Of a DNA stretch of 64,000 nt, positions 5,270 through 42,202 are shown piece after piece. The notes beneath the pieces are model-generated. The model ran no database searches. It was given only the letters and a program-made list of their open reading frames with translations, and was not told the DNA's origin. A program made the translations under genes and the position numbers. The stretch lies in sequence record NC_048170.1. One strand, given 5' to 3'. The DNA is from Escherichia phage vB_EcoM_Goslar. The first letter of the stretch is position 1, and each line of letters starts with the position of its first letter.

Positions 5270-5739
5270 GTACGAAGGATTTGGTTAACTTCGCTTCGCA
5301 TCACCGATAAACGACAACGAAAATCGAACTTCTCATCATGACCGTAGTCTTCATGCATGAAAACTTCATCCAAAACGAACTCAAGTTGCATGTCGACATC
5401 ACGGCCAGAGATATTCCGTTTGTACAAATACAACTCAATCGTGTCGTAAAGCAACGTATGAATATCATAATTTCCGTTCGGTGAGAAATAAGGTAATCGC
5501 TCATCGAGCATCGAAAACAGATATTCACTGTAGTTTAATAACGGGATGATGTACCGACGCCCTGTCTGTGGTGTGCGAATATGTATCGAAACCTGACTTG
5601 GGCGCGGAATAACCGACGGCTTAGAATCGTCTCTCTGAAATTGCTCTAAAGATCGCAACAAAGGTGGCCGCATTGTAACTCTCCAACGCCCAATTGTAAG
5701 GCCCTTCCAACATGTGTTCCCATACGTGAATAAACTCAC
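5188..5739 (-). CDS. hypothetical protein (start uncertain)
   Basis: 183-aa ORF overlapping neighbours. Confidence 0.3.
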   Translation of the reverse strand: MSLFTYGNTCWKGLTIGRWRVTMRPPLLRSLEQFQRDDSKPSVIPRPSQVSIHIRTPQTGRRYIIPLLNYSEYLFSMLDERLPYFSPNGNYDIHTLLYDTIELYLYKRNISGRDVDMQLEFVLDEVFMHEDYGHDEKFDFRCRLSVMRSEVNQILRTWIPRVEDWWHFNFTLDTSMTLWLVVE

Positions 5740-6250
5740 TACCGAAGACAGGCTCTAGTGCCATAGTGAGATTCGTAAGTTCTGACGCGGCCGCATGGTA
5801 AGCATCAACATGTCTTTCCATTGACGGATCGTCTTCATTGAAAATACGTTCTGTATCGCCAGCGCGCTCAATAAGTTCGGTAATGAGATCTGTCCATGTC
5901 TCGTGACACGTCATCATTTCCTGTTCTCGACTTAGTATGCCGATGTCTGCGTGGACGCTGGACTCGAACCGGTCTAAAAGGACCCGAAGAACGTGCACCT
6001 TGTCGATGTATTTCACCGTTATCCAGGAAAGCGGTTGCCACCGACTCAGCATCCATCCGGTACTCGGGAACCCCAAACTCATATAGTACGGGTTGCACCG
6101 GACCGAAGACGGAGCGACGTTGTTTAAATCGCTCCTTAAGGGCAAGGCCTTGTTTAATATAAACGGGTTCATTGGCGAGCTGTTCCGCTTTTCGTTTTGC
6201 GTGAGCCAATCGAAGTTCTTCCAATTGCCCAAGCCATTCAAATTGTTCAT
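5621..6250 (-). CDS. hypothetical protein (start uncertain)
   Basis: 209-aa ORF; overlaps 5868..6845 by about 380 nt in another frame. Confidence 0.3.
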   Translation of the reverse strand: MNNLNGLGNWKNFDWLTQNEKRNSSPMNPFILNKALPLRSDLNNVAPSSVRCNPYYMSLGFPSTGWMLSRWQPLSWITVKYIDKVHVLRVLLDRFESSVHADIGILSREQEMMTCHETWTDLITELIERAGDTERIFNEDDPSMERHVDAYHAAASELTNLTMALEPVFGSEFIHVWEHMLEGPYNWALESYNAATFVAIFRAISERRF

Positions 6251-10659: not shown

Positions 10660-11484
10660 TTAACTGTCGCTTTCTGATGTATCGACGTAGTTGAAAATAC
10701 GATCCCGTAAACACTCGTAACGAGGCAACGCACTAAGAATGATCATCTTCAGCTGCATCGCGATCGATACACGTTCTTCATCCGACGCATCGTCTCCCCA
10801 TTTACCCGGCTTAACCTGAATGGGTTCGTGCGGATCCTGCGGGAATATAAAACTTAACAACAGATAATCCGTACGGAACTCCCATACTTCTCGACCGTCG
10901 TTATCGGTTTCTTTACGCAACGTGAAGAGTTGGCGTTCGGTGGTTGGATCCAGCATCAGCGGTCGGCCACGAACAATCTCCAGTTTACGTGGGCTGACGA
11001 ACGTCGTACGTTCAGGAAGGTATTTTTCAACATCATCCGTATCCAACAAGAACAAAATGATATCGTCGAAATACTTCGGTGCGTACGTGTGTATCGGTTC
11101 GCCGTCGCTATACGAAGAGATCTCTTGAAGTATTGGTGTCTTACACGAAAAGTTCTGGCACGAACCACGGGTTATCGGTAAGGTGGTCCATTGATGTTCT
11201 GTAGACAATTCAACAGGCACCAACGGATAATCATCGATGAAGACCACGCACGTTGTACTAATGGGTATTCTTCCATCATTACCTGGTTCAAAAACCAAAC
11301 GTATCTTACCGGTAATCAGCGCCATCTCATCTGGCATTAAATGGCTTGCTGAACGAGCAAGTCTGAAACCGCTCGCCTGTTTATAAGGTTCGGGTTTATA
11401 GCCACGGACAATAAGAGAGACATCCGCAAGTTCAACGCTCACGAATACATCTTTGGTGTCTTCATTGTTCGTCGTTAACGTCAT
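10660..11484 (-). CDS. hypothetical protein
   Basis: 274-aa ORF. Confidence 0.45.
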   Translation of the reverse strand: MTLTTNNEDTKDVFVSVELADVSLIVRGYKPEPYKQASGFRLARSASHLMPDEMALITGKIRLVFEPGNDGRIPISTTCVVFIDDYPLVPVELSTEHQWTTLPITRGSCQNFSCKTPILQEISSYSDGEPIHTYAPKYFDDIILFLLDTDDVEKYLPERTTFVSPRKLEIVRGRPLMLDPTTERQLFTLRKETDNDGREVWEFRTDYLLLSFIFPQDPHEPIQVKPGKWGDDASDEERVSIAMQLKMIILSALPRYECLRDRIFNYVDTSESDS

Positions 11485-12499
11485 TGTTCATTTTCTCCAT
11501 TGCAACAAATCGTTCAAGCTCGCGTAATAAACGCTCTTTTAACGCAGTATCAACTTCCGGAGCATGTTTATCACGATACCACTCTGTCCCGTTGTATTGC
11601 AGGCTAACGTGCCATGTTCCTAACGGGCTTTCCTCTGCAGCAGCAATGAAATTCTTAACGCCGGTTTTGGTAGGATACTCCATGATAGGAACAGCCTGCT
11701 TCAGATCCATTACGGTAAGATCCTGGAAGTTATAATCCAGAAGCGTTAATGCACGTTTGTCGCGTAACAGTAACCCGCAATCTAAGATAGTGAAATCGAT
11801 ACCCCAAAATTGTAGCTTACCACCCGTACTGATAGGAATATGACCGCGATAGACCGCGAGATAGATCTCCCCTTTATCGGTTTCTTTATTGTATCCTGCG
11901 ATGAATGCTGCGGTAATTAACGGCTGATCGCCTTTCGCAAAGAAAACAGGATGCGTACGATAAAGCCAATCATTACGAATTAAATCTGATACTTGACCTA
12001 AACGTGCCGTAGGCACCATTGTCGATCCTAAGTCACCATTACTAACTTCGAATTGGTAATATTCAAACAGAACACCGTCGACTTCTTCTTTGGCGTATGG
12101 CTCACGAGCCGGGTTAGCGAGTAGGTAACGCAACTTGCTATCGATTTCGGTTACGCGTTCCTCATGGGTATCCATACGACTAGCGACGACGAAAGCGGCC
12201 AGATTACGTACGCTAAGGAACACGTCGTCTTTCTCTTGGTCAGTTAGCCCTTCTTCATCTGCTATCGTTGTCCAATGCAGTGGTCCCTCCACCATCTTTA
12301 ACCATTTGTCTTCACGTTCTGGGTAAACAAAGGGTTTATGTACAGGAACATTGGTATGCTGAACGCGCAATAGTAACGAACAAGGGGATTGCATTATCGA
12401 CTCCCATGGCACTATACCACTCGTGACAGCGATGACGTGACGATTAAGAACAAGAGAAGCTGAATAGGTGATGTTATCTAATCCTGGTAATTGATCCAT
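11462..12499 (-). CDS. hypothetical protein
   Basis: 345-aa ORF. Confidence 0.5.
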   Translation of the reverse strand: MDQLPGLDNITYSASLVLNRHVIAVTSGIVPWESIMQSPCSLLLRVQHTNVPVHKPFVYPEREDKWLKMVEGPLHWTTIADEEGLTDQEKDDVFLSVRNLAAFVVASRMDTHEERVTEIDSKLRYLLANPAREPYAKEEVDGVLFEYYQFEVSNGDLGSTMVPTARLGQVSDLIRNDWLYRTHPVFFAKGDQPLITAAFIAGYNKETDKGEIYLAVYRGHIPISTGGKLQFWGIDFTILDCGLLLRDKRALTLLDYNFQDLTVMDLKQAVPIMEYPTKTGVKNFIAAAEESPLGTWHVSLQYNGTEWYRDKHAPEVDTALKERLLRELERFVAMEKMNNDVNDEQ

Positions 12500-12754
12500 G
12501 ATAGGAATCCTTAGTATGTTTGATATGTTGTTTAATTGACATATTAAGTTTAAAAGAGGTTATGTTTTACGTAATGTTAATAACGTATTCTTATCTCTAT
12601 TAAGTTATGTTCTATCTAAAGATAGTAAACAGATATAATGCTCCCCACCTCCCCATTCTCCCAAGTAATACTGGCCTACCGGCCCTCTCCTTTTTAAGGG
12701 AGAGAGTAAGCATTCAGTATTGCTCAAATGAATAAGCAAAACAGTATAAACTTA

Positions 12755-38263: not shown

Positions 38264-38266
38264 GGG

Positions 38267-38446
38267 TTAGGCTCCACGAGGTCCCGTTAAGTTGCGTAAT
38301 AGGAACGCAACCGTATCGTAACCAATATCAATGTTGAATTTATTTTTACCACTTACCCAGAAAGCTCGCTTCTTGTGCGAGTTGGTAATTTCGTCAATAG
38401 CTTCCATGGAATAAAGAACGTTAACCGAGACCGTATCACCGTCGAA
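38267..38446 (-). CDS. RNAP beta-prime-like subunit, exon 2
   Basis: frame translates FDGDTVSVNVLYSMEAIDEITN...GYDTVAFLLRNLTGPRGA*, colinear with E. coli beta-prime after DFDGD; below 60-codon ORF-track cutoff. Confidence 0.6.
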   Translation of the reverse strand, partial: FDGDTVSVNVLYSMEAIDEITNSHKKRAFWVSGKNKFNIDIGYDTVAFLLRNLTGPRGA

Positions 38447-38930
38447 CCTTGTCTTCGCCTCAGGTCGCTACGCTGAGACCGCCTGCATGGATACGTACAT
38501 CACAGGCTGCTTGCACTTTCATGCAAGAGGAGACTATATCAAACCGTCAGCTTCACTTTCTCGATCATATCGAGAATGCGGCGCTGAAGTATTCTTCAGC
38601 AGCACCTGTTACGGTAACCTACACTTCGAAGACGCTTGTCCTCTACAGGGTGGTAAATCCCTTAGTCGTTGAACCTGCGTTGTTTCACATTCTTACAACC
38701 AAGAATGCCGTATTGCTACGCAATAACCAGGCTGCTGATTGCCCATTGTCTCGCACCTTAGCACCGCTTACGCGGCTTTTCTTTCAGCCTAAGCCTCTTA
38801 CGGAGGTAGTGCATCTCAACTGTTGTTTCTGCCTTTCGGCACCTCATGGGTCGTTGAGCTTTAGGGGTTCCCAGCAATTCGTAGGTTTTTCAAGCACTCC
38901 CTTTCAGGAATACCGGACCTTATAGAAAAG
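38447..38930 (-). ncRNA. group I intron catalytic core (3' part of intron)
   Basis: minus strand: AATTGCTGGGAA (38879-38868), AATCAGCAGCC (38740-38730), GTTCAACGACTAAG (38674-38661), GATATAGTCTCC (38540-38529) in P-Q-R-S order; no ORF of 60 codons or more on the coding strand. Confidence 0.6.
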
Positions 38931-40403
38931 CTATTTATTCAAGTATCTGAAATCCCACTTATCCTTACGTCTATTATCGCACTTGATGTCAGGATGTCTA
39001 ACACGGTGTTGAATCGTAGTCGCTGGTAATTGACTCACATTCACAGCCGATTTCGCGCCAAGAACAATTGTTTTTGTGTTGTCCGGACGAGTAACTTCTA
39101 CCGCTCGATGATGTTTACGTAACACATCACGCCAATACTCACGCCGTTCCGGTTCCGCGTATTCGAGCATATAACCGTTGGTATCGACCAGACCGTAACT
39201 CTCGTTTAAACGAGAGGTGGCGGCTGGTCTACTAATACCAATCGCTTTAGCCGCGTCAACCACGGTTTTATACGGGGTCTCATTACCGTCTCTATCTACA
39301 ACCACAATAAAATCTGGACGCGAATCGAGCAGCTGCTGTCTTCGTTCAAGGGCTTGTTGATGAAGCACCTTATTAACATGTTCGAACCCGTAACCTTCTG
39401 GACCGTGCCACCCTGGATTGTTATTCGCTCGATAAAGTATCGTCGCAGATTTCACTCCCGTCTGACGTGACGCCTCGTTCGCACTATGGACAACCGTGGT
39501 AGTGCCATCAGGGTGATATATCCGTATCTGGTTCATTATACCAGAACCAACGAAATTACCATCAGCTGATTTAATGTCCGGCCAGGGTTGTGGATCATCT
39601 TTGAATTTAACCACCCAACGGTTGTTAAACAATTTGACTTTCCGAGCATGTTTACCTAATGTCGTGTCTGTAACACCGGCTACAGCAGAGGCTTGCGCGA
39701 TACTAGGATATTCCGTGACCACATCTTCTTCAGTATCCCAAAGGAGAACCGGTTTGTTATCATCACGTAGTCCGGTCTCAACCGCATGTAGAATATTTCT
39801 AAGGCGGGTTGCCCATTCTAGATTGTCTAACGCGTAATTCCACTTATCGCCATCAAGATGGTTAACGTCCATCCTATCGACATCAGCCGGATAATCTTTC
39901 CACGCTAAGAGCAGACAGCGATGAAGCGATCTTCTCTGGGATTTAAATCGGCAATCATGCTGCATACTAACGAAAACATAGCTATCGTCAACACACCAGT
40001 GAGGACACTGACGGCCAGTAATACGGTTGATGATTCTACCTTTCCGGTTGGCCAAATAACGAGTGTGTCCGGGAATGACACGATAACCTGGGTACTTAGC
40101 GATTTCGTAAGCAGGCTCGAACCGATAGGATAAATTATCAACATCCCAGTTAGATTCGTCACCATCAACAAACATCGCTTTGACGTATTTCTGTGTTTCA
40201 ATATCAACCAGGATGTTTTTGTGTGCGATACAAATCAATGCTGGGATATTGAATTCGCGACCGGCTATGATAACCGTGTCGCCATTTCTCGGTACCTCGA
40301 CGTGGGTATCGCGATACCGTAAGTTTCCATAGCCGTCTATTTCAATCCAGCTTAAAAACGGAATGGGTATAAACTCTTTTTCAGATACTCGCCATTTAAA
40401 CAT
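38931..40403 (-). CDS. HNH homing endonuclease (intron-encoded)
   Basis: HNH motif VNHLDGDKWNYALDNLEWATRLRN; C-terminal repeated DNA-binding-like modules (SIAQASAVAGVTDTTLGKHARK, TVVDAAKAIGISRPAATSRL). Confidence 0.8.
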   Translation of the reverse strand: MFKWRVSEKEFIPIPFLSWIEIDGYGNLRYRDTHVEVPRNGDTVIIAGREFNIPALICIAHKNILVDIETQKYVKAMFVDGDESNWDVDNLSYRFEPAYEIAKYPGYRVIPGHTRYLANRKGRIINRITGRQCPHWCVDDSYVFVSMQHDCRFKSQRRSLHRCLLLAWKDYPADVDRMDVNHLDGDKWNYALDNLEWATRLRNILHAVETGLRDDNKPVLLWDTEEDVVTEYPSIAQASAVAGVTDTTLGKHARKVKLFNNRWVVKFKDDPQPWPDIKSADGNFVGSGIMNQIRIYHPDGTTTVVHSANEASRQTGVKSATILYRANNNPGWHGPEGYGFEHVNKVLHQQALERRQQLLDSRPDFIVVVDRDGNETPYKTVVDAAKAIGISRPAATSRLNESYGLVDTNGYMLEYAEPERREYWRDVLRKHHRAVEVTRPDNTKTIVLGAKSAVNVSQLPATTIQHRVRHPDIKCDNRRKDKWDFRYLNK

Positions 40404-40410
40404 TTCAATA

Positions 40411-40440
40411 CCTATTAATTACCACTTTCATATTAATAGG
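40411..40440 (-). promoter_or_regulatory. AT-rich 9-bp hairpin just upstream of HNH start codon
   Basis: minus strand cctattaat-atgaaagtggta-attaatagg ending 8 nt before ATG. Confidence 0.35.
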
Positions 40441-40490
40441 TTTAAAAGTTAAATTTGCCAGAAAACTGGCATTTTGTTAGCCTTTCCTTG

Positions 40491-41957
40491 ATCACCGCCA
40501 AGTCCGGCGAGGTATGGCGCAGGGACAATAGTAGTTTCTACGAACGAGGCATTAGGTAACCAGTCGGGGTATTCCCACGCAATAAATCGCTCATCCGTTA
40601 TTGGTTCCCAGTTACTATCAAGTTCAGTTTTCGGTTTTGCTGCAACGGTCGTACGCGCGTAACAGGTTAACGGAATGACGGATTGCATACCCGATACCGG
40701 ATAACGTGTTACCATTGCAGCCAGGTTATTCCAGTATTTATATCCTGCGATATACACTAATTCGGTATACGTGATAGGGTGAACATCTGCACCAGGTTTG
40801 TTAAGCATCTCCGGAGGTAATTCACTCATACCACGGAATAACCGAAACGAATCATTGTTCACATAGACAAGACAAAGATATCGTCCATTAACCATGATAG
40901 GTTCGTTACGCACACCCGGATCGCTTAAGGTGTTCAGTAAGCGTTCTATTCCGTCCCAGGTTGTAAAGTCATCGATGGTGTCTGGATCAAGCGTGACGCG
41001 TTCACGTTCCATCGTTTCGGTATCAATAAGTTCAACTTCTGTAACATCACGGACAAATATTTCCTGCAAAATCCCCGTACGTAATGCATGTTGCGTTACA
41101 GGGAGAGCAGCTTTACTCATCTGGTATAACCCTAACTGAACCGCGGTACAGGAAGGCTGGTTAGGCGACCCTAGTACCTCCGTTGTGGGGTTAATTGCTG
41201 AAATAACGTTACGGGTTGAGTTCCAAACGCGACGTGAACCAAACTTACCTTGGAAGATCCCTTTCTTACCTTGGAACATATCCAACAACAAAGCGTAGAT
41301 ATCGTTAAATGTTCTCTGTAAGCTCCAGCGCTGGCCGTCGTAAACGGGATCAGAATAATCTTTTAATCCATCGGGGACGGTGTTAGAAATTGCAAGGAAA
41401 CGACGATACAACTCTGTAATCTCTTGCTCGCTTTCATACCCGCCTTCTTTTACTTCTATTTCACGTAAGCCTGCAGGCAATACCAGTAAGTGACGGGTCA
41501 TCGCTTTGAACATGTTCTCTTCGACAACTTTAATTCGTAGCTCTCGTTGAGCTGAGCCCGTTGAAACGAACTTGATATCCGCGACGTGTTGTGCAAAGAA
41601 CCCGTATCCTGTTTGTCCTGTTAACGCATCAGACGCAACGAAGTCGCGTTGTTCAGGATCCCAACGAGCGTACGCCTTCCCCGACATGATATCACCATAG
41701 AGGTGTTTTAGTCGAATGAGGCGGTCGTAAATGACAGGGTGCAGGATTTCAACTTTACATTCAATCACCGCAAATCGACGGTCTCGATCTTCACTACCCG
41801 CACTACCAAAGATGGTGTAAGAATAGAAACCATCATCGTGGAAATTACCGGTGCTTGGGTCACGAATGCTCATGCTCGTGATCTTGGGGAGAAAACGTAA
41901 CTGCTGTTTATCGAGGTGTAAAATGCTAATGTTAAACGGCTCTCTGACTTTAGCCAT
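40491..41957 (-). CDS. RNAP beta-prime-like subunit (N-terminal fragment), exon 1
   Basis: RBS GAGGAG before ATG at 41957; blocks LLVLPAGLREIEV, KKGIFQGKFGSRRVWNSTRNVISAINP, RYPVSGMQSVIP align with [41 protein letters not shown]; ORF-track tail past 40491 is intron read-through. Confidence 0.6.
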
Positions 41958-42202
41958 GGAGACACTCCTCTTTACCACCACCGGCTGCGGCGGTATCATC
42001 TGAACACACGAGAGACGTAATGGGTGATGGCGTCACCCATCGCTTCCTTGCTTGAGGCGAGGAAGTTATTAGGTTACGTACCTGCGTGATAAAATCAAGC
42101 AGGCGATGTGTGAAGTTACGCTTCAACATTATCAATGCCGAAGGTAAACTTCGTGCATCACGTTCCAACGTAACATGGGAACGTATCGAACTGGAGGTAT
42201 AC

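Follow-up and report, generated by a model that had tools for sequence, protein, structure and literature searches.

The closest described system to the locus investigated here is that of the jumbo phage phiKZ, for which gp56, gp72 and gp179 have been predicted to be intron endonucleases by Mesyanzhinov 2002 (cited in PMC10914365), introns are listed in the RNA polymerase (RNAP) subunit genes gp55 and gp180 (PMC11512511), and gp179 is termed an intron-encoded homing endonuclease of the RNAP operon, situated upstream of orf180, with orf179 deletion mutants being isolable (PMC12676376). In PhiPA3, the HNH endonuclease gp210, encoded in an intron of the virion-RNAP beta gene gp211/209, nicks the intron-less allele, interferes with phiKZ and mediates phage-phage competition (Birkholz et al. 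2024, PMC11620839), and a few spliced reads were observed for the intron of the virion-RNAP subunit gene gp273/274 of 201phi2-1 (PMC11512511). In this study, a stretch of 64,000 nucleotides (nt) from Escherichia phage vB_EcoM_Goslar (NC_048170.1, hereafter the window) was investigated, and we observed that its homologue of phiKZ gp180, the gene of the virion-RNAP beta-prime N-terminal subunit, is interrupted. The interruption is very probably a mobile IA-type group I intron, inserted between the first Asp codon and the Phe codon of the catalytic motif (G/A)D-FDGD (here and below the hyphen marks the insertion point) and harboring an open reading frame (ORF) for an HNH homing endonuclease.

Comparatively, the phiKZ locus is the nearest counterpart of this arrangement. 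In the phiKZ record (NC_004629.1, L003), gp180 is annotated with 490 amino acids (aa) ending in ...PLGAD, and it is followed by orf179 (HNH) and a group I core scoring 92.2 bits with Rfam; an unannotated 61-codon 3' exon, FDGDTVSFNAVY...GEPKQRD, runs up to gp178, and the ribozyme is unannotated as well (L003 6158-6345 and 7787-9259). KTN4, a close relative of phiKZ, has no insert and encodes a 550-aa protein. The window and phiKZ share the orthologous gene (39% aa identity), the identical insertion point G(A/G)D-FDGD, a homologous IA-type core with P7.1 and P7.2, and a GUCC guide located after the ORF, which places the ORF in the P1 loop in both. Their HNH endonucleases are also homologous, phiKZ gp179 being the closest clear relative of the window's ORF (31% identity over 228 residues, E = 2e-29). 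The two differ, however, in the length of the endonuclease (357 aa in phiKZ against 490 aa in the window, with about 200 extra C-terminal residues in the latter) and in the distance from the guide to the 3' splice site (about 337 nt against about 475 nt, the window having large P5, P6 and P8 extensions), and the phage of the window belongs to a distant lineage with a best protein identity of 42%. The PhiPA3 gp210 intron is likewise an HNH-carrying group I intron at a catalytic-site Asp pair in a virion-RNAP gene of a jumbo phage, but the gene it interrupts is the neighbouring one, homologous to gp178, and not beta-prime; the 201phi2-1 intron also interrupts a virion-RNAP gene of a phiKZ-like phage, though in the beta N-terminal subunit, another gene and another site. 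The element type and the site are therefore already known from phiKZ gp179/gp180, and no new kind of element or mechanism is involved; the added value of the locus lies in a natural intron-less control for the junction, a snapshot of three states of the homing cycle, and the reciprocal occupancy of two RNAP sites.

The initial annotation of this region had described a 516-aa ORF, a downstream 3' frame, an HNH ORF and an ORF-free structured segment, all of which were found at the coordinates and with the features given. The 516-aa ORF on the minus strand (41999..40449) has the C-terminal end ...PAPYLAGLGGDQGKANKMPVFWQI before its stop codon, and the downstream frame (38446..38264) translates as FDGDTVSVNVLYSMEAIDEITN...AFLLRNLTGPRGA before its own stop. 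When T40491 is joined to T38446 and 2044 nt are removed, an in-frame protein of 562 aa with ...LGGDFDGDTV... is obtained, the stretch spanning the exon junction being ...YLAGLGGDFDGDTVSVNVLY..., and the catalytic DFDGD loop exists only once the exons are joined (GGDFDGD). The 13 codons by which the exon-1 frame continues into the intron would be translated only from unspliced RNA. Moreover, the 3' frame offers no start codon ahead of FDGD, the earliest in frame being an ATG at 38407, so it cannot be a separate gene supplying the catalytic loop.

The identity of the interrupted gene, proposed earlier as beta-prime-like, was borne out by several comparisons. The conceptual spliced protein is matched by PHROG 2986 ("RNA polymerase beta subunit") with 597.6 bits over residues 17-557, and a search of the Protein Data Bank (PDB) returned the beta-prime chains of the AR9 non-virion RNAP (7S00/7S01, E = 4e-4), in whose alignment LSALSGDYDGDVLNI stands opposite LAGLGGDFDGDTVSV, as well as plastid and cyanobacterial beta-prime chains. 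Neither the spliced beta-prime subunit nor the beta-like product of the adjacent gene was matched in a Pfam search. With tblastn, the spliced protein gave one-piece alignments, covering 97-99% of its length with 38-42% identity, to 284 uninterrupted jumbo-phage orthologues, the best identity of the RNAP subunit (about 42%) being to Erwinia, Salmonella and Proteus jumbo phages. The junction shows no gap against KTN4 (LGADFDGDTVSF) and pEa_SNUABM_37 (LGGDYDGDTM), and the reconstituted GGDFDGD lines up with GADFDGD of KTN4 and with GDYDGD of the AR9 beta-prime chain (7S01). The flanking gp181-like and gp178-like genes follow the order found in phiKZ (gp181 / gp180 / gp178) and KTN4. Homology and gene order identify the interrupted gene as the phiKZ gp180 orthologue, encoding the beta-prime N-terminal subunit of the virion RNAP; going by orthology only, a gp180-type subunit would be packaged in the virion and take part in early-gene transcription.

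The exact splice boundaries are fixed by a natural allele. IMG/VR was scanned with the predicted spliced protein, and two contigs with about 96% DNA identity to the window were obtained, L004 (IMGVR_UViG_3300011560_000001, 237.5 kb) and L005 (IMGVR_UViG_3300045988_173921). L004 carries the gene without interruption, with the sequence ...CTT GGT GGG GAC TTT GAT GGT GAT ACG... and 95.8% nt identity to the window over the gene, and its 562-aa product is the predicted spliced protein except for one V/I difference elsewhere. The junction GGT GAT - TTC GAC put forward earlier is thus the one carried, at the protein level, by an intron-less relative. L005 harbors at the same point a 510-nt intron without an ORF (Rfam 64.9 bits). 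Relatives do not carry the ...DQGKANKMPVFWQI tail of the 516-aa ORF, since L004 reads through GGDFDGD and the intron start of L005 differs.

An assembly or chimera artefact, an intein, or a translational bypass in place of an RNA intron could be raised a priori for any such interruption, and nothing further speaks for these possibilities, which we consider negligible. The exact 24-nt exon/intron junction at the 5' end recurs in L034 (OGZS01000006.1, 237,972 bp) and L035 (ERZ1643250 NODE-25, 238,169 bp), two independent metagenome contigs of about 238 kb that are 96-97% identical to the window, and this excludes an assembly artefact; both contigs are probably complete genomes of the window's phage lineage. 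Stop codons interrupt the exon frame within the insert, which also holds an ORF of its own, so that an intein is excluded, and the insert matches a ribozyme covariance model, as detailed below. None of 50,697 phage records matched the region in a DNA search at near identity, and the junction 24-mer had 0 matches in genome_contigs and viral_contigs.

With reference to the intron itself, the covariance-model search of the minus strand upheld the group I assignment. Rfam RF00028 (Intron_gpI) was detected by cmscan at 38938..38510 on the minus strand with 67.7 bits (E = 2.5e-16; gathering score 50), the match spanning model positions 1-253, the full model length, and it was the sole Rfam family above threshold in the window. 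No ORF is present in the 0.48 kb from 38930 to 38447. The final base of the 5' exon is T40491 and that of the intron is G38447, a U and a G as anticipated, and a terminal G is common to 7/7 compared introns. The RF00028 match displays GGUUCAACGACUA as its J6/7-P7 and GAUAUAGUCU as its J8/7-P7 sequence, and the window's J6/7-P7 GUUCAACGACUA and J8/7 GAUAUAGUCU agree with the Rfam group I consensus, GUUCAaAGACUA and GAUAUAGUCU, respectively. P7.1 and P7.2, located between P7 and the 3' strand of P3, are a hallmark of IA phage introns and assign the element to subgroup IA. The td, nrdB and nrdD introns of phage T4 are group IA2 introns that carry the J6/7-P7 and J8/7 motifs, with ORFs located in P6a or P9.1 and encoding endonucleases of the GIY-YIG or other types. 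The window resembles the T4 introns in having P7.1/P7.2 and in its insertion in a conserved catalytic region of an essential enzyme, but differs from them in that its HNH ORF lies in the P1 loop.

Covariation was examined in seven introns aligned with MAFFT, namely those of the window, phiKZ, four IMG/VR contigs and Vibrio phage vB_pir03, and was counted in P4, P5, P7 and P7.1, the helices that were in register; P3, P6, P7.2 and P9 were out of register, and P3, P7.2 and P9 were inspected by eye. Over P4, P5, P7 and P7.1, 99.2% of the cells form standard pairs, and both-sided changes occur in half of the pairs (9/18), a level reached in 0/500 shuffles; sliding the partner strand as a control left only 31-54% pairing. 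All four pairs of P7.1 display compensatory changes. From the guide sequence onward, the core of the window differs from that of L005 at 24/475 positions, of which 0 lie in P3, P4 or P7, the differences being confined to loops, peripheral extensions and helix-neutral positions. Judged from this pattern of substitution, the ribozyme is under purifying selection. A distant DNA search with the ribozyme core returned only short conserved-core matches of 35-70 nt to unrelated phage introns.

The 5' splice site would be recognized by a guide located directly after the endonuclease ORF, namely the GUC in AAGGUCCGG (38921..38913); a guide just 3' of the 5' splice site, as in the usual short P1 hairpin, was not found in the window. 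The exon GAU (the Asp503 codon, 40493..40491) pairs with C38916-U38917-G38918, with a U40491-G38918 wobble at the splice site, and the intron base C40490 pairs with G38919. In addition, GGAAAGGCUA (40487..40478) pairs with UAGCUUUUCU (38933..38924, including the stop codon of the ORF), and this 10-bp extension helix closes a loop containing the entire endonuclease ORF. Accordingly placed guides recur among the relatives. GUCC is found in 6/7 compared introns, the remaining one, L032, having GUCG together with exon CGAU, a compensatory change. Every ORF-containing version of the intron has the GUCC guide after its ORF. In L016 it accompanies a 12-bp closing helix, and in phiKZ it overlaps the end of orf179. 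In the ORF-less L005 a simple hairpin takes the place of the ORF, RNAfold pairing GGAUAA with UUGUCC.

The ORF in this loop, called an HNH homing endonuclease from the outset, retains that identity on the basis of Pfam HNH_3 (33.6 bits against a cut-off of 24.8, ORF residues 176-203), PHROG 59 ("HNH endonuclease", 1.9e-26) and its relation to gp179; the one correction is that it had been described as free-standing and is actually inside the P1 loop of the intron. Its HNH motif VNHLDGDKWN...NLEWAT is intact and aligns to I-HmuI. The DNA-polymerase introns of phages SPO1 and SP82 encode I-HmuI and I-HmuII, which are HNH nicking endonucleases, and the window shares with them the combination of a phage group I intron and an HNH endonuclease, while differing in host gene and in its marginal match to I-HmuI (E = 0.0098). 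An exact-protein look-up of the 490-aa endonuclease gave no record.

Several points weigh against the reading of the locus as a splicing, endonuclease-driven intron. Splicing in phiKZ was not detected by ONT-cappable-seq under the conditions used (PMC10914365). P1 of the window is short, consisting of three exon base pairs and C40490-G38919 with a U/C mismatch at position -4, and it needs a long-range contact of 1.57 kb across the ORF. For P10, no convincing pairing of the guide with the 3' exon was found in the window, and L005 offers only UUC/GAA; a short P1 without a convincing P10 is the weakest structural point. On the side of the endonuclease, the Pfam NUMOD1 match (21.2 bits) is under its cut-off of 22.8, and I-HmuI (1U3E) is the only solved structure matched by the ORF, the whole-protein match being the marginal one given above. 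The lack of spliced reads for the phiKZ homologue and the short P1 would also suit a decayed, non-splicing intron remnant, with either a truncated 516-aa subunit or two polypeptides, and hence a split catalytic loop or a pseudogene. We hold such decay to be very improbable, because without a start before FDGD an essential enzyme would lose its three catalytic Asp residues, because the core scores above the Rfam cut-off and shows no L005 differences in P3, P4 and P7, and because exon 2 remains in frame and is 98-99.5% conserved with the relatives, the whole arrangement persisting in three genomes with the homing-endonuclease gene that are 3-4% apart.

Within one lineage of 95-97% identity, three states of the site were observed, that is, ORF-containing (window, L034 and L035), ORF-less (L005) and empty (L004), and from these alleles all three stages of the homing cycle are seen to co-circulate. 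Among the gp180 homologues fetched from IMG/VR, 4/27 are interrupted at the window's site or at most 6 nt from it, indicating that the site is recurrently occupied, and the same codon boundary holds introns in phiKZ, L005, L016 and L031. The exon sequence around the insertion point is unusually diverged: L004 and the window differ at 5 of the 12 nt around it, all synonymously and including the -1 base (C for T), against a gene background divergence of 4.2% (binomial P = 8e-5, about 0.01 when corrected for position), and L005 differs from the window at 9 positions in the last 30 nt of exon 1. Such clustered divergence is the footprint expected either of co-conversion during homing or of target-site escape selection.

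These alleles also bear on whether the endonuclease still acts. A ribozyme that splices while its endonuclease is inactive or domesticated, the intron being inherited vertically as a passenger, would fit the window/L005 cores, which are about 95% identical like the genome background, the existence of an ORF-less form (L005), and the ready isolation of orf179 deletion mutants in phiKZ, where the gene is not strictly essential (PMC12676376). We nevertheless rate this as rather unlikely. The ORF is intact in the L034 copy, where 36 nt differ from the window and 28 synonymous stand against 6 non-synonymous codon changes, which argues for purifying selection on the endonuclease; the HNH motif is preserved; intron-less, ORF-less and ORF-containing alleles coexist among phages that are about 96% identical; and the substitutions gathered at the insertion site in L004 and L005 are those expected of cleavage, co-conversion or target-site escape. 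The predicted endonuclease is likely to be currently active.

Following the established biology of group I introns and HNH homing, we infer the following sequence of guanosine-initiated splicing and endonuclease-driven homing. The beta-prime gene would be transcribed as a single precursor, in which the exon GAU (Asp503) would pair with the guide GUC 1.57 kb downstream to form P1 with its U-G wobble; an external guanosine would attack after U40491, G38447 would dock, and the exons would be ligated. The spliced messenger RNA would then encode an unbroken subunit with ...LGGDFDGDTV..., of 562 aa or, counted from M15, 548 aa. During co-infection, the HNH endonuclease would, for its part, nick or cut this gene in relatives whose allele lacks the intron, and recombinational repair would copy the intron and some flanking exon into those alleles. 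The coordinates of all features are collected in Table 1.

Table 1. Features of the interrupted beta-prime gene, its predicted intron and its neighbours (window coordinates, except the last two rows, which refer to the contigs named).
Feature	Position	Strand	Remarks
5' exon, beta-prime N-terminal subunit gene (phiKZ gp180 homologue)	40491..41999	minus	ATG 41999 opens the ORF; exon ends ...CTT GGC GGT GAT (L G G D)
Exon-1 frame read-through into intron	40449..40490	minus	13 codons (QGKANKMPVFWQI) and stop
Predicted group I intron, IA-type, 2044 nt	38447..40490	minus	5' end CAAGG..., 3' end ...GACAAGG; terminal guanosine (omega-G) 38447
5' strand of P1 and P1 extension	40478..40493	minus	exon G40493-A40492-U40491 and intron C40490
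Predicted HNH homing-endonuclease ORF, 490 aa	38931..40403	minus	in P1 loop
3' strand of P1 extension and internal guide sequence	38915..38933	minus	guide G38919-G38918-U38917-C38916(-C38915)
Ribozyme core	38510..38938	minus	RF00028
P2	38913..38894	minus	
P3	38885..38881 and 38622..38618	minus	
P4	38876..38871 and 38738..38733	minus	
P5 and P6	within core 38510..38938	minus	large extensions
P7	38667..38663 and 38536..38532	minus	
P7.1	38662..38647	minus	
P7.2	38643..38628	minus	6-bp hairpin, seen by inspection
P8	38615..38543	minus	
P9	38527..38510	minus	
3' peripheral hairpins and intron end	38447..38509	minus	P9.1 (38507..38481), P9.2 (38480..38457), terminal ...GAAGACAAGG with omega-G
3' exon	38264..38446	minus	60 codons and stop, FDGDTVSVNVLY...LTGPRGA; completes catalytic DFDGD loop
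Upstream neighbour, gp181-like structural hydrolase, 2260 aa	42086..48868	divergent	
Downstream neighbour, virion-RNAP beta-like gene (phiKZ gp178 homologue), 1448 aa	33917..38263	minus	PHROG 3148; uninterrupted in the window
Beta-gene intron, L004	about 10903-12500		Rfam 51.4 bits; 403-aa HNH/NUMOD ORF
Beta-gene intron, L005	about 11413-11870		Rfam 54 bits; ORF-less

All homologues of the subunit begin at M15 (MAKVREPFNI...), an invariant alignment column that lies 14 codons inside the ORF opening at 41999, and therefore the true start is probably the ATG at 41957, giving a spliced subunit of 548 aa; L004 has the same N-terminal extension upstream of M15. Two hairpins were noticed in the stretch that separates the 5' splice site from the endonuclease start. 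The first, at 40471-40456 on the minus strand, resembles a terminator, with the stem UGCCAG-UUUU-CUGGCA and an A/U-rich tail after it, and the second is a predicted long-stem hairpin (40450..40395, minus strand, fold z-score -2.4), in which the AGG Shine-Dalgarno sequence and the AUG of the endonuclease are buried. The two hairpins may control endonuclease expression, and the buried Shine-Dalgarno sequence and AUG would fit a restrained translation of the endonuclease.

A second intron site was observed in the adjacent gp178-type beta gene of the relatives L004 and L005, each of which harbors there a group I intron after ...DRDD (DRDD-GKR). The window is uninterrupted at this position, between 35057 and 35056 on the minus strand, the one at which the PhiPA3 gp210 intron has been described. 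Occupancy is reciprocal, in that the window is filled at the beta-prime site D-FDGD and empty at the beta site after DRDD, with L004 showing the opposite, while L005 harbors ORF-less introns at both. The exon sequence flanking the beta-gene site is again very diverged locally, so that the flanks of each empty or differently occupied site are locally hyper-diverged, with mostly silent changes. We put forward, tentatively and with more doubt than conviction, that the introns might serve as reciprocal interference weapons between co-infecting relatives, in the way that PhiPA3 gp210 acts against phiKZ, the silent changes conferring target-site immunity, and not be inert selfish passengers.

As regards the intron ends, the initial annotation had pointed to the pentamer CAAGG at both termini. 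Its presence stands (40490-40486 and 38451-38447), while its role does not, the pentamer being coincidental: as a functional terminal repeat it was rejected, since the 5' copy is absent in L005 and neither end is CAAGG in phiKZ, L016 and L031. Both copies lie inside the intron and hence create no ambiguity in the junction. CAAGG repeats have also been reported to flank an unexplained 34-nt spliced fragment in gp2 of phage LUZ24 (Putzeys et al., PMC10914365).

For annotation, this locus means that gene callers will cut the RNAP subunit short at 516 aa, report the HNH gene as an orphan and leave a seemingly non-coding 0.5 kb, and the phiKZ RefSeq record has the same gap, with gp180 of 490 aa ending in ...GAD. 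The intron-less allele in a phage about 96% identical provides unusually clean comparative evidence for the junction at the gp180 site, and the set of alleles, together with the reciprocal occupancy of the gp178-type site, offers material for the study of homing-cycle dynamics and intron-mediated competition in jumbo phages.

Two further introns were noticed close to this site or in a related gene. In L032 (IMGVR_UViG_3300047563_000033, 5449-5800), an ORF-less group I intron lies in the gp180 homologue 6 nt downstream of the usual site, its insertion point being GADYD-GDT rather than GAD-YDGD. In L006 (Vibrio phage vB_pir03, MT811961.1, 2860-4180), a paralogous beta-prime gene is split at NAD-FDGD by a group I intron (Rfam 54.7 bits, guide GUCC), and the gene is annotated as two coding sequences, each named "RNA polymerase beta prime subunit". 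The last exon base of L006 appears to be C (GAC) and not U, which would replace the U-G wobble.

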